Positions 11,881 to 52,334 of a stretch of 64,000 bases of DNA are shown piece after piece. The position numbers were made by a program, and so were the translations under genes. Where the stretch lies: the NCBI GenBank assembly GCA_905236245.1, contig CAJOPC010000029.1, positions 384-64,383 on the forward strand, given 5' to 3'. The notes below the pieces were generated by a model. The model ran no database searches, was not told where the DNA came from, and saw only the letters and a program-made list of their open reading frames with translations. Source of the DNA: an uncultured Alphaproteobacteria bacterium (GTDB lineage: Bacteria > Pseudomonadota > Alphaproteobacteria > CAAHEQ01 > UBA3637). Numbering within the stretch: position 1 is the stretch's first letter; each line of letters starts with the position of its first letter.

Positions 11881-11896
11881 ATACTATATATTGTGT
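11881..11896 (-). promoter_or_regulatory. NrdR-box-like palindrome upstream of nrdD
   Basis: The minus strand reads ACACAATATATAGTAT. This matches the 16-bp NrdR consensus acaCwAtATaTwGtgt at 15 of 16 positions. Only one copy was seen. Confidence 0.4.
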
Positions 11897-12835: not shown

Positions 12836-12920
12836 TGGAATACTATCCTATTTTTTAAATAAAGGCAATAAAAAACATCATATTGTATGCACCACTTTCC
12901 GACATAAGGCCTGTTTCAAC

Positions 12921-12949
12921 TTGACATCACCCTTTTTTTACGATATAAT
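12921..12949 (+). promoter_or_regulatory. consensus sigma70 promoter for tRNA-Gly
   Basis: TTGACA (12921-12926), 17 nt, TATAAT (12944-12949). The tRNA 5' end lies 10 nt downstream. Confidence 0.55.
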
Positions 12950-12958
12950 TTCGGGCAT

Positions 12959-13032
12959 GCGGATGTAGTACAATGGTAGTACAGCAGCTTCCCAAGCTGA
13001 ATACGAGGGTTCGATTCCCTTCATCCGCTCCA
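12959..13032 (+). tRNA. tRNA-Gly (anticodon CCC), CCA encoded
   Basis: Manual cloverleaf: acceptor GCGGATG/CATCCGC, D arm GTAC/GTAC, anticodon loop TTCCCAA, T arm GAGGG-TTCGATT-CCCTT, terminal CCA. Length 74 nt. Confidence 0.9.
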
Positions 13033-13035
13033 AAG

Positions 13036-13068
13036 TCTGGCGATTATTTATTTCGCTAGATTTTTTTT
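13036..13068 (+). terminator. intrinsic terminator after tRNA-Gly
   Basis: TCTGGCGA / TCGCTAGA stem (one G-U pair), 9-nt loop, followed by T8. Confidence 0.55.
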
Positions 13069-13112
13069 ATAATCAATTTAACTTTCAGCAAACAAAAATA
13101 GGAAAATTTTCC

Positions 13113-13141
13113 TTGACTTTTAATATGATTTATGTTATAAT
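13113..13141 (+). promoter_or_regulatory. near-consensus extended -10 promoter for the orphan tail-fibre gene
   Basis: TTGACT (13113-13118), 17 nt, TGT-TATAAT (-10 at 13136-13141). A 125-nt leader follows. Confidence 0.55.
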
Positions 13142-13213
13142 CCTTTTTGTTAAAAGTGATAATTGTAATCACATCATTTTTAACATTTTATCAAATTATG
13201 TATCTTCAAAAAA

Positions 13214-13240
13214 GTCTTAGCTCCAAGCTAAGGCTTTCTT
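13214..13240 (+). terminator. terminator-like hairpin inside the tail-fibre leader (putative attenuator)
   Basis: GTCTTAGCT-CCA-AGCTAAGGC stem-loop, preceded by A6 and followed by TTTCTTGTT. It sits 27 nt upstream of the ATG at 13267. Confidence 0.35.
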
Positions 13241-13266
13241 GTTAATTAGCAAATGAAAGGTATTAA

Positions 13267-14295: not shown

Positions 14296-14296
14296 T

Positions 14297-14602
14297 ATGA
14301 AAAAGCATGCTAAAATTACAAATGAAACGACAAAAGAATGTTCTGTTGGCTTTGGAACAAACACAGAATTTTATCAATCCATCGGGATGACAGAAATGGA
14401 CGTGGAACAAGCCTATAATGGTTCGTGGTATGTTACCGGATATGCCCCAACGGAACCAGAAAAAAGCTATGCCGAAAAAAGAAAAGCCGAATATCCTTCT
14501 ATCGAAGATCAGTTAGATATGATCTATTGGGACAAAATAAATGGAACCAATTTATGGCAAGACAAAATTACTGAGATAAAAGAAAAATATCCCAAAATTT
14601 AA
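14297..14602 (+). CDS. hypothetical protein translationally coupled to the fibre gene (possible fibre chaperone or accessory protein)
   Basis: 101 aa. Its ATG is 1 nt after the fibre stop. The role is inferred from position only. Confidence 0.45.
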   Translation: MKKHAKITNETTKECSVGFGTNTEFYQSIGMTEMDVEQAYNGSWYVTGYAPTEPEKSYAEKRKAEYPSIEDQLDMIYWDKINGTNLWQDKITEIKEKYPKI

Positions 14603-16472: not shown

Positions 16473-16476
16473 CTTT

Positions 16477-18874: not shown

Positions 18875-18887
18875 ATTTATCCTTTCA

Positions 18888-19844: not shown

Positions 19845-19914
19845 CCTTATTCCCTTCCGTTAAAAATTTCTTTGTCTTTGTAGAACAAACATCTAGAGTA
19901 AATTATTATTTATC

Positions 19915-22900
19915 TCATTTTTTAACTCCCCAAAAGACTTTAAGATATTTTATAATAACCTCAGAAACATGTCCATAATTTACCATAATTGATTCTTTGG
20001 CAAATTTCTCTCTAGTTTCTTTTTTTACATCCTGTTCTTTAATAATAATTTTTTCAATAAAATCCAAAATATCTTGTTCAGTATATCCTTGATAACAATG
20101 ATGCAAACAAGCCTGTCCTAACGGAATAAATTTATCCTCAATATCTTTAGGTGTTTTTAAAAGATATAATTGAGGTTTTAAGGTATAAAAATATTCTGTC
20201 AAAAAAGAACCACAATCTTGAATAATTCCATCACTTTGTGCAAAATCTTCAAGATAATTACCACCTAAACTAATTCGTACGTTTTCTTTAGTTGCCATAT
20301 CATTCATATATTTTTCTGTTTTAGCTTTCCCCCAAAAAGTACCGCGTTCTAACACTGGCAATAAAGCCGGGTGAGGACGAAAAATAAAACGGAGGCCAGG
20401 ATACATATCTGGCAATTTTAAAAATAAATCTGAATATTTTAGAAAATTAGATAAACACATCACATCATTAAAGCCTCCTTTAATCGAATGATGTGGCGCA
20501 ATGATAAGGGTCTTTGGCTCAGATTCATGAGAAATGTTCCTATATTGATCCATTTTGCAATACCCAGACAAAACAACATTTTTACCTTTTAAAATGGAAA
20601 ACTCTTGAAACTCTTTCAATGTGAATTCAGAATCCGTAAAAATCCGCCAAAGCAATCCATACTCTTGTGAAGCGATAACATACTTTCGCGAATAAAAACT
20701 ATTATCCATCCCATAACTTACCAAAGCCGGCAAAATCCCTTGCTGTATAATGCTATTCAAACTATATTTTTGATGAGAAACATCATAAAAAAACGGCAAG
20801 AATAAAATATCCGCAATATCTTTTAGATTTAAACTATCTTTTTTCTCAACAAGTGGAGCAGCGTATAAATGATCTTTAAAAGCACTTAATTCTGTTACAC
20901 ATTGCTCTAGATTACTTTTAGCACGATCTGGTCCAAAACGAAAATCTGGAACAGCCAAGATAGTCACTTGAAAAGCTTTATCCTGGCACATCTTTTCCAT
21001 TAAAGGCTTGGCGGGAAACATAGCTGGCAATGTTACTAAAAAGGCTACTTTGATGGGCTGATTTTGGGCCACTTTCTGTTGAATTTTCTGTTCTATAGCT
21101 TTATAGGATTTTTGCACATTTAAAATATCATCCAAAGTCCATTCAACTTGTTTTTTCCTTTTCCTATGCCTATAGCTAAAAACCTTTATACCAAAAATAT
21201 AAATATGTCTTCGCCCATTTGGACATTTTTCTTTTTTCCAAACACAACTCCATCGATTACAGCTTTCTGATTCTTGAGAATTTGGTGTTTTATTGCTTAT
21301 ATTTTTCATATAAATCGGTATACGACAAATGCGAATCGTCAATATCCCTTTTTGATTCACCTTACGCCTGTATAAAAAAAGACTAAACTTTCGAAGCATA
21401 TTCCAGAACACCCCACTATATTGGTGAGGCGTTACCACATCCAAAATTTGCATTCCTTGTGCCACCACTAAATATCCCAAAAAACGTTCCACAACATGGG
21501 CAAATGTGGATTTTTTATGCTCTGCATCTGGCTCTTCAAAATCTGTCCATTTTATTTTTAATTTTTGGAGAGGCTTAAATAATTTTGCTCGCGCAATAAA
21601 TATCGAGCCCGCAACAAAGGCAAAATTCTCACTTTTAAAACCTAGCTTCTGTATCATTTTTTGAGCTTTTCCAGCACTTTTTTCATCTTGATATTCCTTA
21701 GGCAAAATTAAATGATAATCCCCATGCATACCCAACTTTTTATTTTGCGCAAAAGACTGCATTACATTTTCAAAAGCACCCGATGTCTTTAAAAATGAAA
21801 GTGAGTAATCACGCCACCTACTTCCTCCAACATCCATACAATGCAGCACAGCTCCAACTGGCATATCCCGCTTTGTATGCAATTTAATAACATACGAATA
21901 GTTATTTAAATCTACTTTGTTAAGCACATGAACAAAGGGCCCAATATCATAACCACGATTTTCCACTACCTCAATATGAGCCCGAGGAAAAGTTTTTCGA
22001 ATATCTTTCTCAAGTTCAAGATTCTCTTGAACCATTGTCACATATAGCTCAAAAGGATAAGCTCCTACATTTCCGATACATCTTTTCAACTCTACCCATA
22101 ACTCTGGATAAAATATATGGCAATGAATTAAAATCTTCTGTGCCAACAAACTCTGCTCTTTTGTCCCCGCTTGAGCATCACAAATTTTCGTTTTCATACG
22201 GATAAACGGCAACCATTTCCAAACGCCTTTACGTTTGTTGCCATGTTGTATAAATTTTCCACACGGAATGGCCCCAAACAATTTCAAGCGCACAATATTC
22301 GGCACATTTTCACACACTTCTTGCCAAATATTTGAATGCTCTGCCCGCACAAAAGAATGTATTGCATCCGCAGCCTTTGACATTTTTGTTGCTTGGGCTT
22401 TACTAGTATTCCCCTCATACCAACGATATTTCATCAATACTTTTGGGACATTATAAAATTCCGTCTTTCCTATCAACCGGCACCACAGGCAATAATCTTC
22501 GGCCGGGCTATATTGTTCCTCATACTGCACATTTTTTAAAATTGATTTGCGCACCATTGCTGCCGTATGGGCTACTGCACAACCCTGCATTAAATACCGC
22601 TCAATATCTTGATTATGTTCAGGATATTTTGCAATTTTAGTTGCCGGAAATCTTTCCACCCAACTGCCGACCACCCCAATTTTGGGATTTTCATCCAGGA
22701 TCTTGACCTGTTCTGAAAAACGTGTTGGCATAGCAATATCATCATGATCCATAACAGCAATGTATTCACCTTGTGCCAAGGCTAACAATTTATTACGGCT
22801 TTGAGATATGCCCATATTTTTTTCATTTTTAAAATATTTAATTCGTTTATCTTTAAAGGACTTAACAATGGATTCTCGCAAATCCTTTGGGCAATCATCT

Positions 22901-23013
22901 AAAACCAAAAGTTCAAAATCAGGATATGTCTGATGCAAAACACTTTCTATTGCTTCTTTTAAATAAGCAGGTTCTGTTCTATAAACAGGCATCAGTACAC
23001 TTACCTTAGGCAT
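19915..23013 (-). CDS. tri-domain glycan-assembly protein: GT2 glycosyltransferase, RgpF-like domain, CDP-glycerol glycerophosphotransferase (TagB/F)-like domain
   Basis: 1032 aa. N-terminus VSVLMPVYRTEPAYLKEAIESVLHQTY...LLVLDD (GT2). Middle HCHIFYPELW...ENRGYDIGPF (rhamnan synthesis F-like). C-terminal third has IIAPHHS...FRPHP, typical of TagB/F-type enzymes. Confidence 0.7.
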   Translation of the reverse strand: MPKVSVLMPVYRTEPAYLKEAIESVLHQTYPDFELLVLDDCPKDLRESIVKSFKDKRIKYFKNEKNMGISQSRNKLLALAQGEYIAVMDHDDIAMPTRFSEQVKILDENPKIGVVGSWVERFPATKIAKYPEHNQDIERYLMQGCAVAHTAAMVRKSILKNVQYEEQYSPAEDYCLWCRLIGKTEFYNVPKVLMKYRWYEGNTSKAQATKMSKAADAIHSFVRAEHSNIWQEVCENVPNIVRLKLFGAIPCGKFIQHGNKRKGVWKWLPFIRMKTKICDAQAGTKEQSLLAQKILIHCHIFYPELWVELKRCIGNVGAYPFELYVTMVQENLELEKDIRKTFPRAHIEVVENRGYDIGPFVHVLNKVDLNNYSYVIKLHTKRDMPVGAVLHCMDVGGSRWRDYSLSFLKTSGAFENVMQSFAQNKKLGMHGDYHLILPKEYQDEKSAGKAQKMIQKLGFKSENFAFVAGSIFIARAKLFKPLQKLKIKWTDFEEPDAEHKKSTFAHVVERFLGYLVVAQGMQILDVVTPHQYSGVFWNMLRKFSLFLYRRKVNQKGILTIRICRIPIYMKNISNKTPNSQESESCNRWSCVWKKEKCPNGRRHIYIFGIKVFSYRHRKRKKQVEWTLDDILNVQKSYKAIEQKIQQKVAQNQPIKVAFLVTLPAMFPAKPLMEKMCQDKAFQVTILAVPDFRFGPDRAKSNLEQCVTELSAFKDHLYAAPLVEKKDSLNLKDIADILFLPFFYDVSHQKYSLNSIIQQGILPALVSYGMDNSFYSRKYVIASQEYGLLWRIFTDSEFTLKEFQEFSILKGKNVVLSGYCKMDQYRNISHESEPKTLIIAPHHSIKGGFNDVMCLSNFLKYSDLFLKLPDMYPGLRFIFRPHPALLPVLERGTFWGKAKTEKYMNDMATKENVRISLGGNYLEDFAQSDGIIQDCGSFLTEYFYTLKPQLYLLKTPKDIEDKFIPLGQACLHHCYQGYTEQDILDFIEKIIIKEQDVKKETREKFAKESIMVNYGHVSEVIIKYLKVFWGVKK
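21171..21186 (-). repeat. second copy of the 16-nt repeat, at an internal domain junction of the 1032-aa transferase gene
   Basis: See the 19766-19781 entry. Confidence 0.7.
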
Positions 23014-40282: not shown

Positions 40283-40316
40283 AAAAACAGAGGATTCACC
40301 AAAATCCTCTGTTTTC
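40283..40316. terminator. bidirectional terminator between the omp and repressor genes
   Basis: AAAACAGAGGATT / AATCCTCTGTTTT inverted repeat. Confidence 0.6.
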
Positions 40317-40328
40317 ATTTTCCTGATA

Positions 40329-40964
40329 TTATTGACTAACCCAGATAACACGAGCCATCCAACAAACCTCTTCCGGAGTCAAAACAATCAAAGGATGTGC
40401 CGGATTTAATGATTTTAATTCAATTTGTTTGGCACTTTTTCGTTGCAACTCTTTTACCATAACTTCCCCGCTGGCTATTTTCACAACAACTCTGTCATGA
40501 GAACGCACCTCTGCATCCGGTTGAACAACCAATTTGTCTCCTTCACGATAAACAGGAGACATACTATCCCCGGATACTTCTAATGCATAAACACCTTTAG
40601 CTATTTGAACCGGAAAATCTATCCCATCCCAATCACCTGAGGACAAAGGATACCCAGCTGAATCAAAATATCCCTCGCGCCCGGCCTTTGCCAATCCTAA
40701 AAGAGGAATCGTATATTTAGGTGTCGGCATCGGTTGACCCGCATATTCCATAAATTCAAAAACCGTCGTGTTCGTTGCCTTCAAAACTTTATTCATACTC
40801 TCCGTTGATGGCCAACGTTTACGGCCATCGGCACCGATTCGTTTTGACTTGTTAAAACTCGTTGGATCCAATCCTGCCTTTTGGGCCAAAGCAGATAAAG
40901 ATAATCCCTTGGCCTCAGCCAATCTTTCCAAGCCATCCCAAATTTCTTTATACGACAATTGCAT
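40329..40964 (-). CDS. CI/LexA-like autocleavable repressor (HTH_XRE plus S24 peptidase)
   Basis: 211 aa. HTH LSLSALAQKAGLDPTSFNK. IPLLGLAKAG aligns with LexA PLVGRVAAG (Ala-Gly cleavage site). Catalytic GDSMSP Ser and downstream Lys (VMVKEL). Confidence 0.8.
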   Translation of the reverse strand: MQLSYKEIWDGLERLAEAKGLSLSALAQKAGLDPTSFNKSKRIGADGRKRWPSTESMNKVLKATNTTVFEFMEYAGQPMPTPKYTIPLLGLAKAGREGYFDSAGYPLSSGDWDGIDFPVQIAKGVYALEVSGDSMSPVYREGDKLVVQPDAEVRSHDRVVVKIASGEVMVKELQRKSAKQIELKSLNPAHPLIVLTPEEVCWMARVIWVSQ

Positions 40965-41048
40965 AGTGCCTCCTTTCTCTTTTTAGTTGTATATACATTT
41001 AACATATTTTTGTATAAATGTCAATAGGATTTTTTTCTTATTTTTCTC

Positions 41049-41089
41049 TTGACAATCAAAAAATTTTTAATTATGTTCCTATTTTGTTC
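41049..41089 (+). promoter_or_regulatory. early promoter overlapped by an alphaproteobacterial SOS-box-like direct repeat
   Basis: TTGACA (41049-41054), 17 nt, TATGTT (41072-41077). GTTC-CTATTTT-GTTC (41075-41089) fits GTTC-N7-GTTC. Confidence 0.45.
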
Positions 41090-41116
41090 TCATTTTTTTA
41101 AACGAAAGGGGCAAAT

Positions 41117-41473
41117 ATGAGGAATAAATACCTATCGTCAAACGAGCAAGAAACAACACCTTTTGAATCATCAGAAGAAGCATGGTTTTGGTATTGTTTA
41201 TGCGAAAAAGAAAAATCAAATAACCGTCGCCAATACACACCCAAAATTATCAGGCCTTGTGAAACGGCAGATATTTTTATTGCCGTCAAAAGGCTGCTTA
41301 AATTAGGAATTCTAAAACCTTATCATATTAAAATTTTATCCAAATATGGTTTCCAACAAGTGCCACCACACCCACATTTTGGAGACAGCCTAACTATTTG
41401 TCATTTGTGGAAAGAGGCCTTACATTTTTTGGAACGGCTTTTAGTTCAAAAAGGGATCGTCTTTAATTCGTAA
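41117..41473 (+). CDS. hypothetical early protein (candidate regulator)
   Basis: 118 aa. RBS AAAGGGG. No recognisable motif. First gene downstream of the SOS-box promoter. Confidence 0.5.
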   Translation: MRNKYLSSNEQETTPFESSEEAWFWYCLCEKEKSNNRRQYTPKIIRPCETADIFIAVKRLLKLGILKPYHIKILSKYGFQQVPPHPHFGDSLTICHLWKEALHFLERLLVQKGIVFNS

Positions 41474-41490
41474 AAAAGGAGAAAAAGCTT

Positions 41491-41889
41491 ATGATTACTA
41501 CATGTCTTTCATTTGGCTATCGCTTACCATTTGCCTTTGTTGCTTTCGGCGGATCTCCCACACATTGGTGGACAAAATTTTTAAAAAAGGGATTTTACCA
41601 TTGCTTTTTAATTTTAGGAAATGGACGCGAATGGTATATTATTGATCCAGTCATGCATTTTACTGACTTTATCGTCGTCAAAACGCATTATATTGAAAAT
41701 TTTTTCATTCAAAAAGGATATCGGCTGATTCGCACAACGCCATTGTTACCACAAAAAATTTCTTTCTTTTTTCGCCCTTGCACTTGCGTTGAAACAGTTC
41801 GACGTTTTTTGGGTATTCAGCATCCTTTTTTATGGACTCCTTATCAACTTTTTTGTTATTTAACTAAAAAAAAGGAAAATAATCCTTGA
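41491..41889 (+). CDS. hypothetical early protein
   Basis: 132 aa. RBS AAGGAG. Trp/Phe/Cys-rich, with no recognisable motif. Confidence 0.45.
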   Translation: MITTCLSFGYRLPFAFVAFGGSPTHWWTKFLKKGFYHCFLILGNGREWYIIDPVMHFTDFIVVKTHYIENFFIQKGYRLIRTTPLLPQKISFFFRPCTCVETVRRFLGIQHPFLWTPYQLFCYLTKKKENNP

Positions 41890-41914
41890 CATTTGCAAAA
41901 AAATGTGTTATACT
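41886..41914 (+). promoter_or_regulatory. near-consensus extended -10 promoter for the structural operon
   Basis: TTGACA (41886-41891, overlapping the upstream stop codon), 17 nt, TGT-TATACT (-10 at 41909-41914). The palindrome ACTGTT-C-AACAGT lies at 41912-41924. Confidence 0.5.
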
Positions 41915-41950
41915 GTTCAACAGTTAAAATCAATCAGTGTATCTAATATC

Positions 41951-41989
41951 AAAATCGCTCTTTCAACAGGGCGATTTTTCTATTTTTAA
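41951..41989 (+). terminator. terminator-like hairpin between the structural promoter and the portal start (putative attenuator)
   Basis: AAAATCGCTC / GGGCGATTTT stem (one G-U pair), 8-nt loop, then TCTATTTTT. It ends about 16 nt before the portal ATG. Confidence 0.4.
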
Positions 41990-42004
41990 TTGAAAGGAAA
42001 AATC

Positions 42005-43507
42005 ATGTCAGATATCACTCTTATATACAACACTTATAAACGAGCGCTGCAAGATCGTCAAGCGTGGGAATCCACTTGGCAAGAATGTTATGCCTATGCC
42101 CTCCCGCAACGAGAATCCATTTTGAATTCTACTTCTAGCAAAACTAGCATCTTATATGATGGCACAGCACCTGACGCCGTGGATCAACTGGGAGCCTTGA
42201 TGTTATCTCAACTCACGCCACCTTGGATGAATTGGTTTAAACTAACGGCAGGAAATGACTTAAACGAATCGGAACAAAAGGCTTTACTTCCTCAATTGGA
42301 AAAAATGACAAATACGATTCAAACACATTTTGATCGCAGCAATTTTGCGATGGAAATCCATCAATGCTATTTGGACTTAATTACAGCAGGAACCGCCTGT
42401 TTGATGTTTGAAGAATCACCTTTTGGCGCCGCATCTGCCTTTCACTTTTCCGCCGTCCCGCTTTCGCAACTGTGTTTAGCAGAAGGTCCTTCCGGGCGTT
42501 TAGATTATATTTTCAGAACTGTTCAAATGGATTATGATTCATTTACGAATCGTTTTGGAGACTTTATTTTGCCAACAGACGTTATTGTCAAAGCACGCAA
42601 AGAACCAATTCGATTGGATGTTATTGAATGTGTTGAGCCCAATCAAGATGGGTCTTTTTCCTACACTGCATTTTTAGATCCCAATTGCCAACACCTCTCC
42701 AATAACGGAGAACCTGTCATGCTAAAACAAGCGCATTATGACACCTCTCCGTTTATTGCTTTCCGTTGGCTAAAAGCCCCGGGAGAAGTTTACGGCCGTT
42801 CCCCCGTTATGAAAGCTTTGCCAGACATTAAAACGGCAAACAAGGTTGTGGAACTTATCCTTAAAAACGCCACAATCGCCGTAACGGGTATCTGGCTTGC
42901 CGAGGATGATGGCGTGTTAAATCCTGCCAACATCCGTCTAACCCCGGGAGCCATTATTCCCAAAGCCGTTGGATCTAAGGGGCTAACAGCTCTGGAATCT
43001 CCAGGGAAATTTGATGTATCACAATTGGTCATTAAAGATTTAAGAGAACGTATCAGGCACGCTTTATTGGGAGATAGATTAGGCCAATTAGACACATCTG
43101 CCCCGATGACTGCAACAGAAGTGCTTGAAAGAGCAGATGAAATGTTGTTGGTTTTAGGCGCAACGTATGGTCGTTTACAATCGGAATTATTGATGCCATT
43201 AATTGAACGCGCCGCCGCTATTTTACGCAAACGTGGAGAAATCCCCGATATTTTCATTGATGGTCATTATTTAAAAATCGCCTATCAATCTCAACGAGCA
43301 GAAAAGCAAGCCCGGATCAACGCACAAAACGGCCTTACATGGCTTGGTGAAATATCTAAATTAGGAGAAGCCGCACTCGGCCAAATTGATATTCCTGCCT
43401 TTATTCGATGGCTGGGACATAATTTAAACATTCCGGAAAGCGTTTTTAACAAAGCAGTTTCTGCTCCCCTTATCCCGCTTTCACAACCACAAACTCAAGG
43501 AGAATAA
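42005..43507 (+). CDS. portal (head-to-tail connector) protein, T7 gp8 family
   Basis: About 500 aa from the ATG at 42005 (RBS AAAGGA). N-terminal RQAWESTWQECYAYALPQRE...LYDGTAPDAVDQLGALMLSQLTPPWMNWFKL is typical of podoviral Head-tail_con portals. Confidence 0.8.
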   Translation: MSDITLIYNTYKRALQDRQAWESTWQECYAYALPQRESILNSTSSKTSILYDGTAPDAVDQLGALMLSQLTPPWMNWFKLTAGNDLNESEQKALLPQLEKMTNTIQTHFDRSNFAMEIHQCYLDLITAGTACLMFEESPFGAASAFHFSAVPLSQLCLAEGPSGRLDYIFRTVQMDYDSFTNRFGDFILPTDVIVKARKEPIRLDVIECVEPNQDGSFSYTAFLDPNCQHLSNNGEPVMLKQAHYDTSPFIAFRWLKAPGEVYGRSPVMKALPDIKTANKVVELILKNATIAVTGIWLAEDDGVLNPANIRLTPGAIIPKAVGSKGLTALESPGKFDVSQLVIKDLRERIRHALLGDRLGQLDTSAPMTATEVLERADEMLLVLGATYGRLQSELLMPLIERAAAILRKRGEIPDIFIDGHYLKIAYQSQRAEKQARINAQNGLTWLGEISKLGEAALGQIDIPAFIRWLGHNLNIPESVFNKAVSAPLIPLSQPQTQGE

Positions 43508-43508
43508 G

Positions 43509-44189
43509 ATGATAAAAACTCAAGACAAAACCAATAAAATAATCAATTCTGATGACGAAATGATCAAAATTCCAAATAAATTTTTGGACGCAGAAGGCCA
43601 ATTAAACACGGCTGCTTTAATAAAATCCTATTTGGAATTAGAGCGTAAATTATCAGAAATAAAATCAAATGAAAATGTTCCTTCTCAATCGGTCACAGAG
43701 TATAAACTCACAATGAAATCGCCGCTTATTCAAGAAGATCCGGAAATTGATCAAACATTATTACAACATGGATTCACAAATGAACAAGCACAAGTGGTCT
43801 ATGATTTAGCGGCTGATAAAATTATTCCGGCATTACAAAACTTGATGGACGACATCACAACAGATCAAGAGCTGAAAGGATTAGAACAAGCTTTCGGCGG
43901 CCCAGAACAATTCAACATTGTCGCACGCCAAATTTCCGCTTGGGGAGAAAAAAATTTAGATCAAAAAACATTTAACGCTTTGGCTTCGTCAAAAGATGGT
44001 ATTTTAACAATGTATAAGATGATGCAAGGCAATTTAGAATCACCTTTGTTAAAAGGCCAAGGGCAAATGACGCCTCAAGATGATGAAGCATCCTTGAAAA
44101 AATTGATGCAAAATCCAAAATATTGGCGCGATCAAGATCCAGAGCTATTAAAACGCGTAGAGGCTGGTTTTAAACGCCTTTACGATTAA
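43509..44189 (+). CDS. capsid scaffolding protein
   Basis: 226 aa. IPNKFLDAEGQLNTAALIKSYLELERKL is typical of podoviral scaffolds. Lies between portal and capsid, with its ATG 1 nt after the portal stop. Confidence 0.7.
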   Translation: MIKTQDKTNKIINSDDEMIKIPNKFLDAEGQLNTAALIKSYLELERKLSEIKSNENVPSQSVTEYKLTMKSPLIQEDPEIDQTLLQHGFTNEQAQVVYDLAADKIIPALQNLMDDITTDQELKGLEQAFGGPEQFNIVARQISAWGEKNLDQKTFNALASSKDGILTMYKMMQGNLESPLLKGQGQMTPQDDEASLKKLMQNPKYWRDQDPELLKRVEAGFKRLYD

Positions 44190-44295
44190 ACCTTTTGTGG
44201 ACAAGTCTTTTGACCCCACGGAAAAATCGGGCGAAGGCAACTTCATAACCCACAACTTTAAAACAAAAAAATAACAAATAACGAAAGGAATTATT

Positions 44296-45168
44296 ATGTC
44301 TGTATCAACAGCAATTGATGCTTCGTTTGTAAAACATTTTGAAGCAGAAGTTCACAACGCTTATCAACAACAGGGTTCAAAACTCAGAAACACCGTCCGT
44401 TTTAAAGGCGGCATTACAGGAACAAGCACGACCTTCCAGGTCATTGGCGCTCAATCTGCCAATCAAAAATCTTCTCGCAACGCTCAGCTGACACCATCTG
44501 CCGTGACACATGCTCCTGTGGAATGTGAATTGTCCGACTGGTATGCCGGTCAATGGGTAGACAAATTAGATGAATTAAAAATCGGCCACGATGAACGCAA
44601 AGTGTTGGCCACAGCTGGCGCCTATGCTTTGGGCCGCAAAACAGATGCTTTGATTATTACAGCACTCAGCAACGCAAGCAACACCGCAGGCACATCCAGC
44701 GAAGCTTTGACAAAAGATCGTATCTTGTCCGCCTTTGCTACCTTAAACAGCAACAATGTGCCGGATGACGGTGAACGTTACGCTCTGGTCGGCCCAGCAC
44801 AGTGGAATCAACTGCTCAGCTTGGATGAATTTTCCAATGCAAACTATGTAGGTGATGAGCACCCATTTGTGGCCGGCTCCGAATCGCGCAAGTGGATGGG
44901 CATCAACTGGATCATGCACACAGGATTACCAACATCCGGATCAGGTTCCAGCGCAACAACCACATGCTTTATTTACCATAAATCCGCCGTCGGCTTGGCC
45001 GCTGGTCAGGACATTACAACCGACATCACATGGCATGGCGACTATGCTGCCCATTATGTGAACAACATGATGAGCCAAGGCGCTTGCTTAATTGACAACA
45101 ACGGCGTTGTCAAAATGGTTTGTTTGGATACACCTCCTGCCGCAGAAGATGCCAACGCAGAAACCTAA
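44296..45168 (+). CDS. major capsid protein
   Basis: 290 aa. Position and composition fit, and it is followed by a strong terminator. N-terminal FVKHFEAEVHNAYQQQGSKLRNTVR and AYALGRKTDALIITAL resemble podoviral coat proteins. Confidence 0.75.
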   Translation: MSVSTAIDASFVKHFEAEVHNAYQQQGSKLRNTVRFKGGITGTSTTFQVIGAQSANQKSSRNAQLTPSAVTHAPVECELSDWYAGQWVDKLDELKIGHDERKVLATAGAYALGRKTDALIITALSNASNTAGTSSEALTKDRILSAFATLNSNNVPDDGERYALVGPAQWNQLLSLDEFSNANYVGDEHPFVAGSESRKWMGINWIMHTGLPTSGSGSSATTTCFIYHKSAVGLAAGQDITTDITWHGDYAAHYVNNMMSQGACLIDNNGVVKMVCLDTPPAAEDANAET

Positions 45169-45184
45169 AATTTGTTTAAACACG

Positions 45185-45215
45185 GCCCCCTTTTCATTAA
45201 GGGGGCTTTCTTTTT
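45185..45215 (+). terminator. intrinsic terminator after the capsid gene
   Basis: GCCCCCTT / AAGGGGGC stem followed by TTTCTTTTT. Confidence 0.65.
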
Positions 45216-45229
45216 GAAAGGAAGCCAAA

Positions 45230-45799
45230 ATGTCTTATACAAAAATTGATTTATGTTCCCGCGCATTAGTTAAACTGGGGGCAAACAGTATTGCTTCGTT
45301 TAATGAAGCAACCGCAGAAGCTAAAGTTTGTGCGCAATTGTATGAACCAACGGTTGAAAGCTTATTGGCATCATATCCTTGGCGTTTTGCATTAGAAAAA
45401 GCTACGCTCGCTCGCCTTACATCTAAACCAACGGCAGATTACCAATACGCCTATCAACTGCCCAATAATTGCGTTCGCGTTCTTTCCGCAGGCAACGGAA
45501 GCAAAAGCCAAGGTTTAAAATACAAAATCGTTGGCAATATGTTGCATACAAATGCAGATCAAGTCATTATTTCCTATATTGCCAGGCCAGACGAATCGGT
45601 CTTCCCTGCATTTTTCAGCAATGCTCTAATTGCTAAATTAGCCGCAGAATTATGCCTTCCGCTCACTGAAAGCACCGCACGGACAGATTATATGTATAAA
45701 CGAGCAGAAGAGGAATTTAAAATTGCAAAATTGACTGACAGCCAACAAGATGTCCCCGCTTGTTTCCAAGATTTTTCTTTAATTGAGGTACGCCAATGA
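45230..45799 (+). CDS. tail tubular protein A / adaptor (T7 gp11-like)
   Basis: 189 aa (T7 gp11 is 196 aa). IDLCSRALVKLGANSIASFNEATAEAKVCAQLYEPTVESLLASYPWRFA parallels gp11 [46 protein letters not shown]. Confidence 0.7.
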   Translation: MSYTKIDLCSRALVKLGANSIASFNEATAEAKVCAQLYEPTVESLLASYPWRFALEKATLARLTSKPTADYQYAYQLPNNCVRVLSAGNGSKSQGLKYKIVGNMLHTNADQVIISYIARPDESVFPAFFSNALIAKLAAELCLPLTESTARTDYMYKRAEEEFKIAKLTDSQQDVPACFQDFSLIEVRQ

Positions 45800-47721
45800 C
45801 AAATATTTTTACAAGCAAAACAAATTTTGCCGCAGGAGAATTGTCAACAGACCTATTGGGACGCGTCGACATTAATGCATATGCCAATGGCGCCTTATCC
45901 TTGAAAAATGTGTTTGTAGAACCAACAGGAGGGGTTCATCGTCGGCCTGGGCTGCAATTTATGGCAAATGTATCGTCATCCGGTCGCTTGATTGCCTTTG
46001 AACAATCACAATCTAAAAGGTATTTAATATTAGTCCAAGCTGGTCAAACACGTATTTATCAAGGGGATACTTTGGTTGACACCCTTACAACACCATGGAC
46101 ACAAACACAGCTTTCTCAAATTGCATGGTGTCAATTGAATAACGGCATTTTAATCGTTCATCCGGATGTAGCACCACGTAAAATCGTTCTAAATAATACA
46201 ACATGGTCTCTTCAAAATTTTGCATTTTTAGAGGAAGATAATTGTATTTTACAACCCTATTACCGATTCGCTGGAGATGATGTGACTATAGCGTCTAGCG
46301 GATGTGGCGGTACAGTCACATTAACTACTAGCGCTGATGTGTTCACCAACGACCATATTGGCATGCAATTTAAAATTGCTGATGGATATGTTTTAATTCA
46401 ATCTGTTACCAATGCTACACAAGCAACGGGCGTCGTAAAAAAGAAACTCATGGATGGAGAAAACATTGGTGATTCCACTGCACTAAATGCAACGCGCCAT
46501 TGGGGAGAGCCAGCCTTTACAACACAACGCGGATGGCCTTCAACAGTTTGCACCTATCAATCCAGATTAGTTTTTGGCGGAAGCAAATCTTTACCAAGCA
46601 CTTTATGGTTCAGTCAAACTGGTGACATTACCAATTTCGAACAAGGGGATGGTTATGATGCAGAAGCAATTGAATTTCAAATATTGTCTAACCAATCAGA
46701 TCATATTGCCGCCCTTTTTGCTGGACGCCATTTGCAAGTATTCACCGCCAGCGCAGAATGGATGGTATCAGGAGATCCTTTAACTCCATCCAACATCCAA
46801 TTAAAACGCCAAACCCAAGTTGGCAGTCGAACCGATATTTTTGTTCCACCAATTGGCATTGATGGCGCCACTATTTTTGCGGGAGCTGATGGCCACGAAA
46901 TCCGTGAATTTTTATTTTCGGATTTAGAAGGAGTCTATCAAGCAACGGACTTATCTTTATTGGCTCGCCATTTAATTCAAAAGCCCATTGATATGGCTTA
47001 TGATAAACATGAGCGGCAAGCCTATATTGTCATGAATAATGGTCATTTGGTCACTCTGACTTCGTTTAGAGCGGAAGATTTACAAAGCTGGACCGAACAA
47101 ATAACAGACGGAGCATTTTTATCCGTTGCTATCTTGGGTGAAACAGCCTATTTTTTAATCAAACGAGGAGAAAACTATTTCCTTGAATGTTTTAATAATA
47201 CGCTTCATACAGACGCGGGAATTACTCGCGAACTTGAAAGCGCTACAACAACATTCACTAGCTTAAATCACTTAAACGGCAAAACTGTTTCTATTGTTGG
47301 AGACGGCATTGTTATGGAACCGATGGAGGTTCAAAACAATCAATTAGTTTTACCGCATGCTGTTGAAAAAATAGAAATAGGCCTACCGTTTACGCATATT
47401 ATCATACCATTACCACCCGTCGCCTCTGCTAATAACGGAGCGGCCCCGGTATCCAGTTGTCGTTTGGTCAGAGCTGTTTTTAGATTGGTAGACACATTTT
47501 CTTTGGAAATTGATACTGGAACAGGTGTTCATCAAGAAATTGTTCCAGAAATGGACACATATTGTTTGGACAATTCAACCACACAACAAACAAAAGATTT
47601 GGTATTGCGATCACTGGGCTGGGTTCGCAGCCCCACACAACCTTTGTGGGAAATTATTGGTTCAAGTCCACAGGCATTTAAATTAGTGTCTGTTACTAGT
47701 GACATTAAATTAGGAGGTTAA
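45796..47721 (+). CDS. tail tubular protein B / nozzle (T7 gp12-like)
   Basis: 641 aa. ATGA overlap with the adaptor gene. The N-terminus GELSTDLLGRVDINAYANGALSLKNVFVEPTGGVHRRPG resembles the gp12-type nozzle N-terminus. Confidence 0.7.
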   Translation: MTNIFTSKTNFAAGELSTDLLGRVDINAYANGALSLKNVFVEPTGGVHRRPGLQFMANVSSSGRLIAFEQSQSKRYLILVQAGQTRIYQGDTLVDTLTTPWTQTQLSQIAWCQLNNGILIVHPDVAPRKIVLNNTTWSLQNFAFLEEDNCILQPYYRFAGDDVTIASSGCGGTVTLTTSADVFTNDHIGMQFKIADGYVLIQSVTNATQATGVVKKKLMDGENIGDSTALNATRHWGEPAFTTQRGWPSTVCTYQSRLVFGGSKSLPSTLWFSQTGDITNFEQGDGYDAEAIEFQILSNQSDHIAALFAGRHLQVFTASAEWMVSGDPLTPSNIQLKRQTQVGSRTDIFVPPIGIDGATIFAGADGHEIREFLFSDLEGVYQATDLSLLARHLIQKPIDMAYDKHERQAYIVMNNGHLVTLTSFRAEDLQSWTEQITDGAFLSVAILGETAYFLIKRGENYFLECFNNTLHTDAGITRELESATTTFTSLNHLNGKTVSIVGDGIVMEPMEVQNNQLVLPHAVEKIEIGLPFTHIIIPLPPVASANNGAAPVSSCRLVRAVFRLVDTFSLEIDTGTGVHQEIVPEMDTYCLDNSTTQQTKDLVLRSLGWVRSPTQPLWEIIGSSPQAFKLVSVTSDIKLGG

Positions 47722-47722
47722 C

Positions 47723-48187
47723 ATGGAAGTCGCTATTGCCGCCGTCGGCGCCGCTATCGTCGGATCGGCTTATTATTCAAAAGAAACGGCTGACAATCAA
47801 AAAAAGGCCATTAAAAAATCAAATGCCCTTGCCGCTGCACAAGCAGATTTAGATCGTCAATCTGCCCAAATGTTGTTAGAAGAACAACAACGTAAAAACA
47901 AAAATTTACTGCGTCAACAACAATCTAGCTATAAAGCCAAACTCGGCGCAAGCGGATTGAATCATACAAATGGTTCCGGGCAAATTATTCTAGATGCTCT
48001 ACAAAAAGAGCACGATATAGAAGATAAATACCTTGTAGAACAAGCAAAAATATCTTTGCAATCCTTGGATAATGCTCTGGAACAAACAACACGCAGGAAT
48101 TTACTTGCATTAGATAATATATCTGCAAACCAGAAAAAAGACATATTGGATGGTATCAGCAGTACTGGACGGAGTATAATTAAATAA
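47723..48187 (+). CDS. internal virion protein, gp14-like
   Basis: 154 aa. Hydrophobic N-terminus AIAAVGAAIVGSA, then a Gln/Ala-rich coiled coil, like T7 gp14. Position after the nozzle gene. Confidence 0.45.
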   Translation: MEVAIAAVGAAIVGSAYYSKETADNQKKAIKKSNALAAAQADLDRQSAQMLLEEQQRKNKNLLRQQQSSYKAKLGASGLNHTNGSGQIILDALQKEHDIEDKYLVEQAKISLQSLDNALEQTTRRNLLALDNISANQKKDILDGISSTGRSIIK

Positions 48188-48197
48188 GGAGTTCCAT

Positions 48198-48479
48198 ATG
48201 TCCGATAGGAATATTCCCCCGGCAACCGATTGGAGCTCGTTTTTAACAAAGGCAACCCAAGATTATTATCATTTTGCAATGCAATCAACTCCTTTGGATG
48301 CAAAAGAATTTAGTGCCTATCACAGCGCGTGTAAGGCTGCTTTAAGCCATATTTTAATTCTAAAAAAACTTATTGAAAATTCATCGGACAAAACAACAGA
48401 GCCCGATCTTTTTTCCTTATTGGAAAATGCACGAAAGGCAACCTATGACCCGGACGGAACAAATGATTCATTTGATTGA
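48198..48479 (+). CDS. small ORF in the terminase small-subunit position (T7 gp18 size)
   Basis: 93 aa versus 89 aa for T7 gp18. Acidic C-terminus. Immediately upstream of and overlapping TerL. Assigned by position and size only. Confidence 0.35.
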   Translation: MSDRNIPPATDWSSFLTKATQDYYHFAMQSTPLDAKEFSAYHSACKAALSHILILKKLIENSSDKTTEPDLFSLLENARKATYDPDGTNDSFD

Positions 48480-49872
48480 ATTTGTATGGATTTGGAATCA
48501 ACAATTAAAATTTGATTTACCCAAACACCACCGTGCTATTTGTCGCTTTTTAGAAACCTTTTTTCAAAATGATAAGCGCGGGCTATTAATGGCCTTTCGG
48601 GCATCCGGCAAATCTACCTTGGTCGGATTATTTTGTGTATGGGCCCTAAGATTAAATCCAAACTTGCGCATTTTAATTGTCGCTGCCGATCATAATTTGG
48701 CGAAAAAGATGGTTCAACATATAAAAAGAATCATCAACAAACATCCATTATGCCAAGATATGAAACCGATACATCCGGACGAATGGGCTTCAGATTGCCT
48801 GTCCGTCCGACGGCAAGATACCGGACGAGATCCATCCGTTTTAGCCAAAGGATTAGGCGCAAACTTGACCGGCTGCCGCGCAGATTTAATTATCTGTGAT
48901 GATGTAGAAGTTCCTAAAACAAGCGATTCGGCTACAAAGCGTCATGAGTTGCGACAAAAATTATCTGAATTAGATTATATTTTAACATCTAATGGAGGTA
49001 TTTTATATATCGGCACACCCCATGCAAAAGAGACTATTTACAATACACAAGATGGCTTCTTAAAAAATTGGCCTGTTTTAAAAATTCCTATTTTGAATAA
49101 AAATGGAGAATCTAATTGGCCAGAGAAATTTGCTATTGAAAAAATTGAGGCCTTAAAAAAACAAACAGGTCCAACAAAGTTTTATAGCCAAATGATGTTA
49201 GACCCTATCAAAAGCGCAACGAATCGTTTGGACACAAGCCGGCTTGTTTTCTATGATGACGAAATCAGTTATCATGAAGCAAATGAAGCATCCACATTAA
49301 AAATAGGCAACAATCAAATGGTCTCTGTTTCCTGTTGGTGGGATCCCGCCTTTGGATCAGCAAAAGGAGATCGCAGTGTTATTGCCTGTGTTTTTTCAGA
49401 TGCAAACGGACACTATTATTTGCACCGCATTGCTTATTTAAAGGTTCCACCTCATATGGAAGCTGCGGGCTATCAATGTCGTGAAGTTGTTGCTTTTATT
49501 CAGGAAAATCACCTGCCGGCTATTCATTTGGAAAGCAATGGCATTGGTAAATTTTTACCTGCCTTATTGCGACAAGAGTTAAACAAAGCGCATGTTGCCT
49601 GTGCGGTCATTGAAGAAATTTCTCGCACCCACAAACAAGACCGTATCTTGGCCGCATTTGAAGTGCCGCTGATGAACGGAGCGCTATCTGTGCATACTAG
49701 CATTAAAAACACGCCTTTTATGGATGAATTGCAAGACTTTCATCCTTTTATTGCCAAAGGACATGATGATGCTTTGGATGCCGTTGCTGGCTGCCTCTTA
49801 TCCGAACCGGTTCGTTTAAAATATAAAACATTTATCAATCCTGTCCATCAAAATTGGCAGGGTTATTTTTGA
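48445..49872 (+). CDS. terminase large subunit
   Basis: Start is taken at MTRTEQ (RBS AAAGG). Walker A MAFRASGKST, Walker B ADLIICDDVE, and nuclease-domain WWDPAFGSAKGDRSV. Confidence 0.85.
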   Translation: MTRTEQMIHLIEFVWIWNQQLKFDLPKHHRAICRFLETFFQNDKRGLLMAFRASGKSTLVGLFCVWALRLNPNLRILIVAADHNLAKKMVQHIKRIINKHPLCQDMKPIHPDEWASDCLSVRRQDTGRDPSVLAKGLGANLTGCRADLIICDDVEVPKTSDSATKRHELRQKLSELDYILTSNGGILYIGTPHAKETIYNTQDGFLKNWPVLKIPILNKNGESNWPEKFAIEKIEALKKQTGPTKFYSQMMLDPIKSATNRLDTSRLVFYDDEISYHEANEASTLKIGNNQMVSVSCWWDPAFGSAKGDRSVIACVFSDANGHYYLHRIAYLKVPPHMEAAGYQCREVVAFIQENHLPAIHLESNGIGKFLPALLRQELNKAHVACAVIEEISRTHKQDRILAAFEVPLMNGALSVHTSIKNTPFMDELQDFHPFIAKGHDDALDAVAGCLLSEPVRLKYKTFINPVHQNWQGYF

Positions 49873-49883
49873 AAGGAAACAAA

Positions 49884-50291
49884 ATGACAGAATTAGAAAT
49901 TTTTGCAAAAACATTGTTTGGAGAAGCGCGTGGAGAAAAACTGTCCGGCATTGAGGCCGTTGCTAATGTAATTTTAAACCGCGTCAAACATGCTATCCAA
50001 ATCGGCAATTATTGGTGGGGGAAAACAATTGAAGAAGTTTGTTTAAAACCATTTCAATTTTCTTGCTGGAATAAAGCCGATCCCAATTACACCTTATTGA
50101 CCCAAAATTTGGATGATAATAAGGTCTATCAACTTTGTAAACGCGTTGCCAAACGAGCCATTACCGGCTTTTTAACGGATAACACAAATGGAGCGACACA
50201 TTATCACACCAAAAGCATCCATCCCCAATGGGCCAGGCGCGCCGTTCCATGTGCCGACATAGGACAACATCTTTTTTATGCATTGTATTAG
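49884..50291 (+). CDS. SleB/CwlJ-type cell-wall hydrolase (endolysin)
   Basis: 135 aa from the ATG at 49884 (RBS AAAGGAAA). LFGEARGE...AVANVILNRV...PFQFSCWN is the Hydrolase_2 signature. Confidence 0.85.
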   Translation: MTELEIFAKTLFGEARGEKLSGIEAVANVILNRVKHAIQIGNYWWGKTIEEVCLKPFQFSCWNKADPNYTLLTQNLDDNKVYQLCKRVAKRAITGFLTDNTNGATHYHTKSIHPQWARRAVPCADIGQHLFYALY

Positions 50292-50300
50292 GAGATCCAT

Positions 50301-50612
50301 ATGCCCACGCCACACTTAAATATTGAAATAGGCAAACTCATGGCAACGGTTGCCGCCTTACAAAATCAGTTGACGGATATTAAAAAAGAAATCAATATCC
50401 TGGCCGATCAAGTCAGCACTTTAAGGGAAGAACTTAGCAATTTTATCGGCACAGTTCAAACAAAAAATACCTGTCAGTTAATCCATGAAAAATTAAAAAA
50501 TGAGTATGTTTCCAAATTGGAAATACTGCCGTTAAAAACTTTGGCCAAAACTGTCTGTATCACAGCCGCCACAGCCATCTGTTTGGCTTTAATGAATCTT
50601 ATTTTAAAATGA
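50301..50612 (+). CDS. coiled-coil protein with C-terminal TM anchor (holin/spanin-like lysis accessory)
   Basis: 103 aa with a C-terminal hydrophobic segment VCITAATAICLALMNLIL. Position after the endolysin. Confidence 0.4.
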   Translation: MPTPHLNIEIGKLMATVAALQNQLTDIKKEINILADQVSTLREELSNFIGTVQTKNTCQLIHEKLKNEYVSKLEILPLKTLAKTVCITAATAICLALMNLILK

Positions 50613-50623
50613 AAGGAGAAAAC

Positions 50624-50803
50624 ATGATGCAATTTATTATCAATAATTTTAGCGATATTTTGGGTGCCCTCACCTCTATTATTGCTGGGGCCAGCGCTTT
50701 ATCAGCCATAACACCTAATGACAAAGATGATAAAATTTTAAGCAAAATTAAATCGTTCTTAAACATCTTTGCGTTAAATATTGGCAACGCTAAAACGGCT
50801 TAA
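50624..50803 (+). CDS. small membrane protein (putative holin)
   Basis: 59 aa from the ATG at 50624 (RBS GAAAGGAG). One TM helix, then ITPNDKDDKILSKIKSFLN. Confidence 0.4.
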   Translation: MMQFIINNFSDILGALTSIIAGASALSAITPNDKDDKILSKIKSFLNIFALNIGNAKTA

Positions 50804-51659: not shown

Positions 51660-52334
51660 ATGTCAAGCACTGAAATTATTAAAATCGGATCTGTTTCTTT
51701 ATCTTTAAATAAAAGCCTGCGCGCCAAGCATGTTTTTTTAAAACAAGATTCTAAGGGTGAAATAACTTTAACCTATCCTAAATTTTATCCGAAATGTTGG
51801 GCCGTTCGTTTTGCAAAAACCCAAATGCCTTGGATTCTCGCCCATTTAAAACATGGCCAAAAAGAAACAGTTTTTGCCCCAAATGATACCATACAAATTT
51901 TGGGAAAGTCTTATCTTTTAACATCTGGCAAACGAACTTTAGAGTCGCAAACCGAACTCACCATTTCTGGCTCCCCAGAATTTTTTCATCGTCGTGTTTG
52001 CTCGTATGCACAAAAACAATTATTACCCTATATTCAACAAAAAGTTAAAAGTTATGCCACGCAATTAGGTGTCAAACCAGGACGCATTACGCTTCGTGAT
52101 ACATCCTCCCGATGGGGCAGTTGTTCCAGCACTCATAACCTTAGTTTTTGTTGGAAAATTGCCTTTTCACCATTGGATGTTATTGACTATCTAATTGCAC
52201 ACGAGGTCTCTCACTTATCTCACATGAATCACGGTCCTAAATTTTGGGCAACTGTGGATAAATTAACAAATCACCGCATGCAGGCCGAAAAATGGTTAAA
52301 AGAAAACGGCCGCAAACTACAAAGTATTCGATAA
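51660..52334 (+). CDS. M48-family metallopeptidase (YgjP/DUF45)
   Basis: 224 aa. WGSCS and HEVSHLSH motifs. Confidence 0.8.
   Translation: MSSTEIIKIGSVSLSLNKSLRAKHVFLKQDSKGEITLTYPKFYPKCWAVRFAKTQMPWILAHLKHGQKETVFAPNDTIQILGKSYLLTSGKRTLESQTELTISGSPEFFHRRVCSYAQKQLLPYIQQKVKSYATQLGVKPGRITLRDTSSRWGSCSSTHNLSFCWKIAFSPLDVIDYLIAHEVSHLSHMNHGPKFWATVDKLTNHRMQAEKWLKENGRKLQSIR

Follow-up and report, generated by a model that had tools for sequence, protein, structure and literature searches.

The gene transfer agents (GTAs) known from Alphaproteobacteria are long-tailed, and RcGTA and BaGTA are built from protein families different from those of T7-type phages. Agents of the RcGTA and BaGTA type consist of a chromosomal, phage-derived set of head, tail, packaging and lysis genes without replication or integration functions; they are conserved under purifying selection, occupy more than one locus and answer to host regulation, and RcGTA production reportedly depends on LexA. 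Few GTA lineages are known, and the 2022 viriform classification lists RcGTA-, BaGTA- and Brachyspira-type agents, with three independent origins. Here we describe a module at positions 40,329 to 50,803 of a 64-kb stretch of DNA from an uncultured alphaproteobacterium (the window, part of a 106-kb metagenome scaffold) that shares these genomic features and has an unrelated ancestor. Its proteins are T7-type (PF12236 portal, gp11 and gp12, a gp14-like protein and a gp19-type large terminase, TerL), its control combines a CI-like repressor with a promoter-terminator design, and its tail fibre is encoded at a surface-glycan locus. We put at roughly 0.6 the probability that a lineage of gut and rumen Alphaproteobacteria domesticated the structural, packaging and lysis genes of a T7-like podovirus as a host-controlled particle system spread over at least two loci, with gene transfer as its most likely role.

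FpGTA, a GTA-like element of Faecalibacterium with a proposed podovirus-like morphology (PMC12946183, 2026), resembles the module in coming from a gut bacterium, in its structural and packaging operon of ~10.5 kb, in having the tail fibre, among other things, encoded in a second operon apart from the first, and in being near-ubiquitous in its host genus, a likeness read from its published description. FpGTA differs in belonging to Firmicutes and in carrying its lysis genes in the second operon, and its packaging of random 8.4-8.9 kb fragments was shown experimentally (PMC12946183), whereas the module, in this respect also unlike RcGTA and BaGTA, is known from its genes. The preliminary description of the locus had been aware of no short-tailed, T7-type GTA. 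FpGTA has overtaken the first half of that statement; as to the second half, full-text literature searches turned up neither a T7-type GTA nor any account of this element in gut Alphaproteobacteria. BaGTA itself, suspected from the low guanine-cytosine content, was rejected as an identity for the module: the related loci come from gut and rumen metagenome-assembled genomes (MAGs), and the accessible account of BaGTA describes no T7-type structural genes. A T7-derived GTA would add one more independent domestication, this time of a very different type of phage, and would do so in abundant, uncultured gut and rumen bacteria whose horizontal exchange is poorly understood.

We found all module open reading frames (ORFs) of the preliminary description in place, with gaps or overlaps of -4 to +107 nt between neighbours, and corrected the starts of portal, TerL and endolysin relative to the ORF list (Table 1). 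Its T7-like order of portal, scaffold, capsid, tubular proteins A and B, gp14-like protein, 93-residue protein and TerL is backed by hidden Markov model (HMM) searches and by comparison of TerL with solved structures, the nearest of which are T7-type terminases, T7 gp19 among them. For the gp14-like protein, the HMM matches are PF24072 (6e-5, under the gathering score) and phrog_418 (1.6e-5). The divergent S24 repressor with two early ORFs ahead of the structural genes, which we call u118 and u132, was also recovered, as was the SleB-type endolysin after TerL, followed by two small proteins with one hydrophobic segment apiece. Profile searches against PDB sequences gave nothing usable for u118, u132, the gp14-like protein or the 93-residue protein, and Rfam gave no family match for the late leader or elsewhere in the module. 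No module protein matched tape-measure or tail-tube families, as an RcGTA-like cluster would; all family matches are to T7-type families. Public MAG records label the module proteins 'hypothetical'.

The HMM searches also bore out the claim that replication, RNA polymerase (RNAP), integrase, gp15/16 and fibre genes are absent from 40.3-50.8 kb, as no module ORF matched polymerase, primase/helicase, RNAP, integrase, gp15/16 or fibre families. The closest sequenced phages are T7-like podophages, namely Pelagibacter phage EXVC031P and 32-kb Vibrio phages, which share the order portal-scaffold-capsid-tubular A-tubular B-gp14 and a T7-type terminase, at 30-42% capsid identity. In contrast to these phages, the module has no RNAP, DNA polymerase or primase-helicase and no gp15, gp16 or fibre after gp14, keeps its fibre at another locus, measures 10.5 kb rather than 32-40 kb, is fixed in the chromosome and uses sigma-70-type promoters. 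We found no closer full-length phage in INPHARED, where the best match was 57.6% on a 5-kb fragment, then the pelagiphage at 42% and the 32-kb Vibrio phages at about 30%, or in IMG/VR, which returned only 5-8 kb fragments of the module. The IMG/VR uncultivated virus genomes L038-L040 are 6-8 kb fragments of the chromosomal module that have been filed as viral genomes.

The canonical order is seen in a Vibrio phage relative of 32 kb, which has portal, scaffold, major capsid protein, tubular A and tubular B and then four unannotated ORFs (164, 713, 1057 and 874 residues) at the gp14, gp15, gp16 and fibre positions. In the module, an ORF of the size of a small terminase subunit (TerS) comes directly after the gp14-like gene. 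Hence, two large ejection proteins and the fibre are missing from the cluster. A gp15/gp16-sized gene was found neither in the module loci nor in the fibre loci nor behind the shared late promoter in a metagenome scan, and its absence bears on how a GTA of this type could deliver DNA.

Scanning a species-representative genome collection with the capsid protein gave 32 loci. Nearly all of them are in MAGs that carry the label Alphaproteobacteria and come from rumen, abomasum, caecum or human gut. The whole colinear series (~10.4 kb), which begins with the repressor and ends with the small membrane proteins, was present in about 28 loci, each from a species-level MAG, with module proteins 40-95% identical. 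Clustering of the flanking ORFs gave three synteny contexts: beside a sixA-like gene and ygjP, which is the context of the window, between Xth/CorA and GspF/GspE at an identical position in 12 species of one subclade, and between Lnt and ATP synthase genes. Only 2-3 genuine internal in-frame stops occur among about 350 module genes. Pairwise ratios of nonsynonymous to synonymous substitution (dN/dS) were 0.06-0.18 for the concatenated core genes of the module, as against 0.04-0.19 for flanking host genes; these values are rough, with many pairs near synonymous saturation, and the closest pairs (dS 0.24-0.65) give 0.07-0.12. Module dN follows flank dN (r = 0.86 over 80 species pairs). The module is thus inherited vertically and under purifying selection. 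Both comparisons, of chromosomal position and of dN/dS, had been proposed in the preliminary description, for which a module absent from or frameshifted in all relatives would have spoken against domestication; about 28 species carry it at conserved positions with nearly all frames intact.

A decaying prophage remnant without current function would account for the many typical phage functions that the module lacks. This explanation is effectively refuted by conservation: because the frames are intact, dN/dS is far below 1, and promoters, operators and terminators are kept across species at 50-70% protein identity, a decaying remnant is excluded, and the original judgement that a domesticated particle-producing system fits better holds.

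The fibre gene lies 26 kb from the module and also carries PF03906 (Phage_T7_tail) in a precomputed annotation. That this gene is compatible with the module, as first suggested, is supported by its T7-type N-terminus and by a promoter, operator and leader terminator common to both loci; homologous fibre N-termini stand directly after the nozzle gene in more distant relatives (L025, L026 and L032). Compared with the window protein, 119 homologues show 46-87% identity over residues 1-240 and only 14-29% over the last ~100 residues. All nine contexts in which the sequence reaches far enough show the fibre gene as a chromosomal singleton adjoining polysaccharide-biosynthesis genes (glycosyltransferases, rmlABD, LicD/phosphoenolpyruvate (PEP) mutase, pyruvyl transferase, nucleotidyl transferases); apart from the fibre, and often a small ORF of ~100 residues after it, the genes there are host genes. 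An ORF alike in size and position (97-130 residues) follows the fibre in most loci with enough sequence. We read this arrangement as a probable link between the receptor-binding tip and the surface glycan type of the cell itself; specificity and recipient glycan, if this is true, would be inherited together, which suggests how particles could be restricted to kin.

The polysaccharide locus of the window (14599-23013) encodes a PEP mutase, an enzyme resembling thiamine pyrophosphate-dependent decarboxylases, an aminotransferase, LicD and a 1032-residue glycosyltransferase, and this gene set suggests a surface glycan decorated with phosphonate or phosphocholine. Five fibre loci have a tRNA gene ~70 nt to 1.2 kb upstream of the shared promoter (Table 1), and its identity changes between loci (Gly-CCC twice, Gln, Lys, Arg).

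That the fibre gene is indeed elsewhere is one point for reading the module as part of an ordinary prophage whose replication, RNAP and gp15/16 genes have been moved by rearrangement or lie beyond the sequence seen, which is 64 kb of the source genome and +-10 kb around the module in the others. We consider this very improbable, given that about 28 species show the same truncated architecture, flanked immediately by host core genes left and right (ATP synthase, GspE/F, CorA, Xth, Lnt, SpoU methylase, response regulator) and that the fibre stands among host genes in 9/9 contexts. RNAP, DNA polymerase and primase-helicase domains were absent from the module and the +-10 kb flanks of these loci, and no integrase or replication protein was found among the checked flank proteins. 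Adjacent replication or early genes, an integrase or attachment (att) sites appeared in no locus within +-10 kb; the preliminary description had named adjacent or linked early or replication genes together with att sites as the mark of an ordinary prophage.

Quite improbable, too, is a helper-dependent satellite or defective prophage that spreads by borrowing replication, ejection and integration from a T7-like phage. The module does look the part as a compact element that encodes a capsid, packaging proteins and a CI-like repressor of its own but no gp15/16, and it occupies three different chromosomal contexts across the clade. In one pair of loci, L015 and L016, it is also far more similar than its flanks (module proteins 97% identical, dS 0.24; flanking host genes 84%, dS 1.05), which suggests a recent replacement of the module by recombination between species. 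However, about 28 loci show no integrase, replication initiator, att repeat or abutting tRNA, so the integrase, replication module and att sites of phage-inducible chromosomal islands (PICIs) and capsid-forming PICIs are lacking. Twelve species of one subclade have the module at the same place, its divergence follows that of the flanks, and phage, virome and genome collections hold no full-length close phage relative. The fibre, moreover, is elsewhere in the chromosome under the same promoter, and a mobile unit could not carry it.

The late promoter ahead of the portal, P2, is near consensus (11/12). Its 18-nt element plus promoter has two matches in the 64-kb window, before the portal and the fibre, where 0.07 are expected, and the same promoter precedes the fibre gene in three other genomes. 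In all fetched loci, each module locus and each fibre locus has a single copy of the motif. In a pattern scan of metagenomes, the motif preceded about 20 portal genes and 14 fibre genes. All 27 portal leaders have a terminator-like hairpin and T tract (median -15 kcal/mol) ahead of the start codon, and all 17 fibre leaders likewise have a terminator after the promoter. The stem sequences in the portal leaders vary between species and loci; the terminators were detected in each sequence separately, and RNAalifold on a MAFFT leader alignment gave no structure, the variable hairpins being out of register. A further hairpin after the capsid gene, conserved in most loci, recalls the T7 terminator after gene 10.

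Since a terminator stands between the promoter and the first gene, expression would need an antitermination factor, and the design implies that the late operons are under antitermination control. With its constitutive-looking promoter, it resembles the PR'-tR'/Q arrangement of lambdoid phages, in which transcription from a strong promoter meets a terminator at once, before it reaches the genes for structure and lysis, and the gene of a small early protein lies immediately upstream. Unlike the lambdoid case, no protein of the module has a significant sequence or structure match to Q proteins and the design is duplicated at an unlinked locus; the likeness is read from sequence.

The shared promoter-leader signature, GGAAAATWWTCCTTGAC-N15-TGNTAT plus a leader terminator, offers a means of finding every member of the regulon in a given genome of the clade. 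A third regulon locus, for example one with gp15/16, was sought by promoter motif in the window and 537 kb of related loci, which gave only portal and fibre sites; two sites with two mismatches (L019 and L022) stand ahead of ordinary host genes or nothing. The metagenome promoter scan gave no large gene of internal-virion type and three contigs with other small cargo behind the same promoter-leader-terminator design (L058 3546-4340; L063 1298-1911, minus strand; L106 263-1151, minus strand). This cargo, which has no homologue in the window, comprises a protein with a DuOB domain, an L,D-transpeptidase-like protein of the Tlde1/YkuD kind and a phage-lysozyme protein whose pesticin-like match is weak. 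Its members may be further parts of the regulon or co-released toxins.

Early control would link the module to its host. Of 26 loci, 25 have a GTTC-N7-GTTC element over the -10/+1 region of the rightward early promoter P1, always at a fixed distance, and elsewhere in 537 kb the motif matches only six times; it is reported as the LexA box of Caulobacter and other Alphaproteobacteria (PMC9578287, PMC4211646). In the S24 repressor, the Ala94-Gly95 cleavage site, Ser134 and Lys171 are invariant and the helix-turn-helix region is almost invariant. This protein is not the host LexA, a candidate that we rejected because the protein reaches 32 bits with the lexA equivalog model, whose cutoff is 111, and the alignment covers the peptidase domain only. 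The A-rich element at the repressor promoter, AAGAAAAAAATCC, is related to the late-promoter palindrome, and the repressor may bind the late palindromes (GGAAAATnATCC) as well.

The two early proteins, one or other of which is the obvious candidate for the antitermination factor, have no sequence match to the Q family or other families in profile searches. Their AlphaFold models are confident (predicted local distance difference test, pLDDT, 84 for u118 and 86 for u132); u118 is a four-helix protein with invariant Cys and His residues, and u132 keeps His37, Asp59 and Cys99 invariant. Foldseek found no significant match for either model in PDB or BFVD. The best fold likeness of u118 is to antiterminator Q21, which is non-significant (template modelling score, TM, 0.41-0.42; E about 2), recurs over several Q21 entries and would suit the lambdoid design, and u132 has a faint, non-significant likeness to papain-like peptidases. 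Homologues of u118 and u132 fall into 710 and 542 clusters, respectively, of uniform size, some on contigs of several hundred kb.

We propose that, at rest, the self-cleaving CI-like repressor and host LexA, bound at P1, would together hold the system off. DNA damage, through activated RecA, would remove both repressors and let P1 express u118 and u132. The two late operons, portal-to-lysis and fibre, would each start from the same promoter into a terminator and be read through with the help of an antiterminator, probably u118, in a scheme modelled on lambda PR'-tR'/Q. Portal, scaffold and capsid would then form heads, which the TerS-like protein and TerL would fill with DNA; as the element has no replication or excision functions, we propose that the packaged DNA must be chromosomal. 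The gp11- and gp12-like proteins and the fibre would complete a short tail, and the endolysin and two membrane proteins would lyse the producer cell. With its hypervariable tip encoded at the edge of the cell's own polysaccharide locus, the fibre would match particles to the glycan type of kin. Without a gp15/gp16 ejectosome, DNA would perhaps reach the periplasm only, with host uptake completing entry; RcGTA is said to deliver DNA to the periplasm in this way, with host uptake functions doing the rest.

The case for a GTA draws on phage-derived structural and packaging genes in a cellular genome without replication or integration functions, on vertical inheritance under purifying selection with one discordant pair (L015/L016), on dispersed loci with a common promoter and leader, and on a host regulator that would act through the LexA box on P1. 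Judged from its genes, a vertically inherited, SOS-wired, multi-locus set without replication, excision or integration fits the defining genomic features of a GTA. The fuller proposal, an independently domesticated T7-type GTA family that is switched by SOS and antitermination, carries a glycan-linked fibre, exchanges DNA among kin and delivers it to the periplasm, is tentative, and we hold it somewhat more doubtful than not.

Several points weigh against a GTA. Particles, packaging and transfer are predictions from gene content. Relatives with similar capsid and scaffold have 32-34 kb genomes. A head that kept this capacity would have room for the main cluster (10.5 kb), if probably not for the fibre locus ~26 kb away in addition, and the classical mark of a GTA, that it cannot package its own genes, may therefore not apply. 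T7-type terminases normally cut at specific sites, not randomly. With no gp15/gp16 equivalents found, the particles might be unable to deliver DNA, and, the genomes having been seen in part, further components or a linked replication module elsewhere are possible. The fold likenesses of u118, an antiterminator candidate, and of u132 are leads and no more at their non-significant scores, and the L015/L016 replacement suggests that inheritance is not purely vertical.

The lack of gp15/16 could mean periplasmic delivery, a third locus, or a particle that transfers nothing. The last would be a domesticated PBSX-like defective phage, or a lysis or killing device under SOS, that may package DNA but kills or lyses cells or releases DNA or enzymes; we regard it as unlikely. 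PBSX offers a precedent (discussed in PMC12946183). The ejection proteins gp15/gp16 are found in no locus, the hypervariable fibre tip beside variable glycan loci could reflect an arms race rather than kin matching, and on related contigs the same promoter-leader drives the peptidoglycan-targeting enzymes named above (Tlde1/YkuD; phage-lysozyme, weakly pesticin-like). Against such a particle, portal, TerS-like protein and TerL are all kept under purifying selection, which argues that DNA packaging matters. Tailocins, in addition, use a contractile or puncturing apparatus, and a short-tailed T7-type particle has none.

Table 1. Features of the module, its control regions and the fibre locus. 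Positions refer to the window unless a locus number precedes them.
Feature	Position	Strand	Family match or other basis
tRNA genes near fibre loci	window 12959-13032; L035 6823-6896; L036 6512-6586; L072 1265-1340; L068 3116-3192		
Second late promoter copy, upstream of fibre	13101..13141	+	GGAAAATTTTCC-TTGACT-17-TATAAT
Terminator-like hairpin in fibre leader	13211..13237	+	
Tail fibre, T7 gp17-type N-terminus, hypervariable C-terminal ~100 residues	13267..14295	+	phrog_1640, 5e-23
101-residue ORF directly 3' of fibre gene; possible fibre assembly factor	14297..14602	+	no family match
Bidirectional terminator-like hairpin between host omp gene and module	40284..40315	.	
Repressor, CI/LexA-like, self-cleaving: helix-turn-helix N-terminus and Peptidase_S24 domain	40329..40964	-	PF00717, 1e-22
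Divergent control region: leftward repressor promoter, rightward P1 (41049-41077)	40965..41116	.	A-rich element AAGAAAAAAATCC abutting -35 of repressor promoter
LexA (SOS) box of alphaproteobacterial type over -10/+1 region of P1	41075..41089	+	GTTC-N7-GTTC
u118, early protein (118 residues), Cys/His-rich, four predicted helices; candidate antiterminator/regulator	41117..41473	+	no family
u132, early protein (132 residues), invariant His37, Asp59, Cys99	41491..41889	+	no family
Late promoter P2	41874..41914	+	palindrome GGAAAATAATCC abutting -35 of TTGACA-17-TGnTATACT
Conserved leader, then intrinsic terminator (41951-41978), ahead of portal	41915..41978	+	GTTAAAA...TGTATC
Portal (T7 gp8-like)	41990..43507	+	Head-tail_con (PF12236), 3.6e-122; likely start ATG 42006
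Scaffold (T7 gp9-like)	43509..44189	+	PF05396, 1e-10
Major capsid protein	44296..45168	+	PF19821, 1e-70
Terminator-like hairpin after capsid gene	45184..45207	+	conserved in most loci
Tail tubular protein A / adaptor (gp11-like)	45230..45799	+	phrog_394, 8e-53
Tail tubular protein B / nozzle (gp12-like)	45796..47721	+	phrog_376, 5e-124
gp14-like internal virion protein	47723..48187	+	weak HMM matches and position directly 3' of nozzle gene
93-residue conserved helical protein at gp18 (TerS) position; TerS candidate	48198..48479	+	phrog_31793, function unknown
TerL, T7-type large terminase	48373..49872	+	phrog_38, 2e-91; likely start ~48445
Endolysin (SleB-type)	49854..50291	+	Hydrolase_2, 1e-21; likely start ATG 49884
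Protein with helical N-terminal part (predicted, by eye) and C-terminal hydrophobic anchor; lysis accessory candidate	50301..50612	+	
Small protein with one hydrophobic segment; holin-like candidate	50609..50803	+	phrog_9685

The genes that flank the module in the window are chromosomal (OMP_b-brl, bPH_2, MiaB-like, FtsY, PBP1A, a cyclophilin-type peptidyl-prolyl isomerase and GyrA). The preliminary description had placed the module between an omp gene and a sixA-like gene, with its last ORF overlapping the convergent host gene by 14 nt. Host families do lie on both flanks, and the coordinates give an overlap at 50790-50803; the omp label stands with its OMP_b-brl match, and the sixA-like label is weak (TIGR00249, 1e-7, below the cutoff). 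A repeat search found no convincing att-like repeat around the module, in line with the earlier observation, and no tRNA abuts it at the window locus or any other module locus. The search did return a weak direct repeat (40325-40354 and 52176-52205) that brackets the module together with the sixA-like gene, a gene for an 86-residue protein and ygjP; as a candidate att site it was dropped, its 73% identity over 30 nt being judged chance.

Related elements also occur outside these loci. In other Alphaproteobacteria MAGs, L025 (6389-14324) and L026 (7498-20516) carry a differently ordered version, with endolysin, scaffold, capsid, tubular A, tubular B, gp14-like protein and a 240-residue fibre, then a 205-residue ORF that matches only the N-terminal half of TerL, two ORFs, the portal and, last, the C-terminal half of TerL, so that the terminase looks split. 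Distant versions are present in cultured Alphaproteobacteria, namely Skermanella stibiiresistens SB22 (L032, contig29, 10462-18362), with tubular A, tubular B, a 704-residue fibre, a TerS-like ORF, TerL and endolysin, and Azospirillum sp. A26 (L030, plasmid pA26_3, 6815-7594). These strains are possible experimental entry points.

Elsewhere in the window, the anaerobic ribonucleotide reductase gene nrdD (9797-11932) is followed directly downstream on the minus strand by a separate ORF of 62-67 residues that matches the NRDD family (~9577-9780), and the same arrangement is present at L035 (4108-6370), hence in two genomes.

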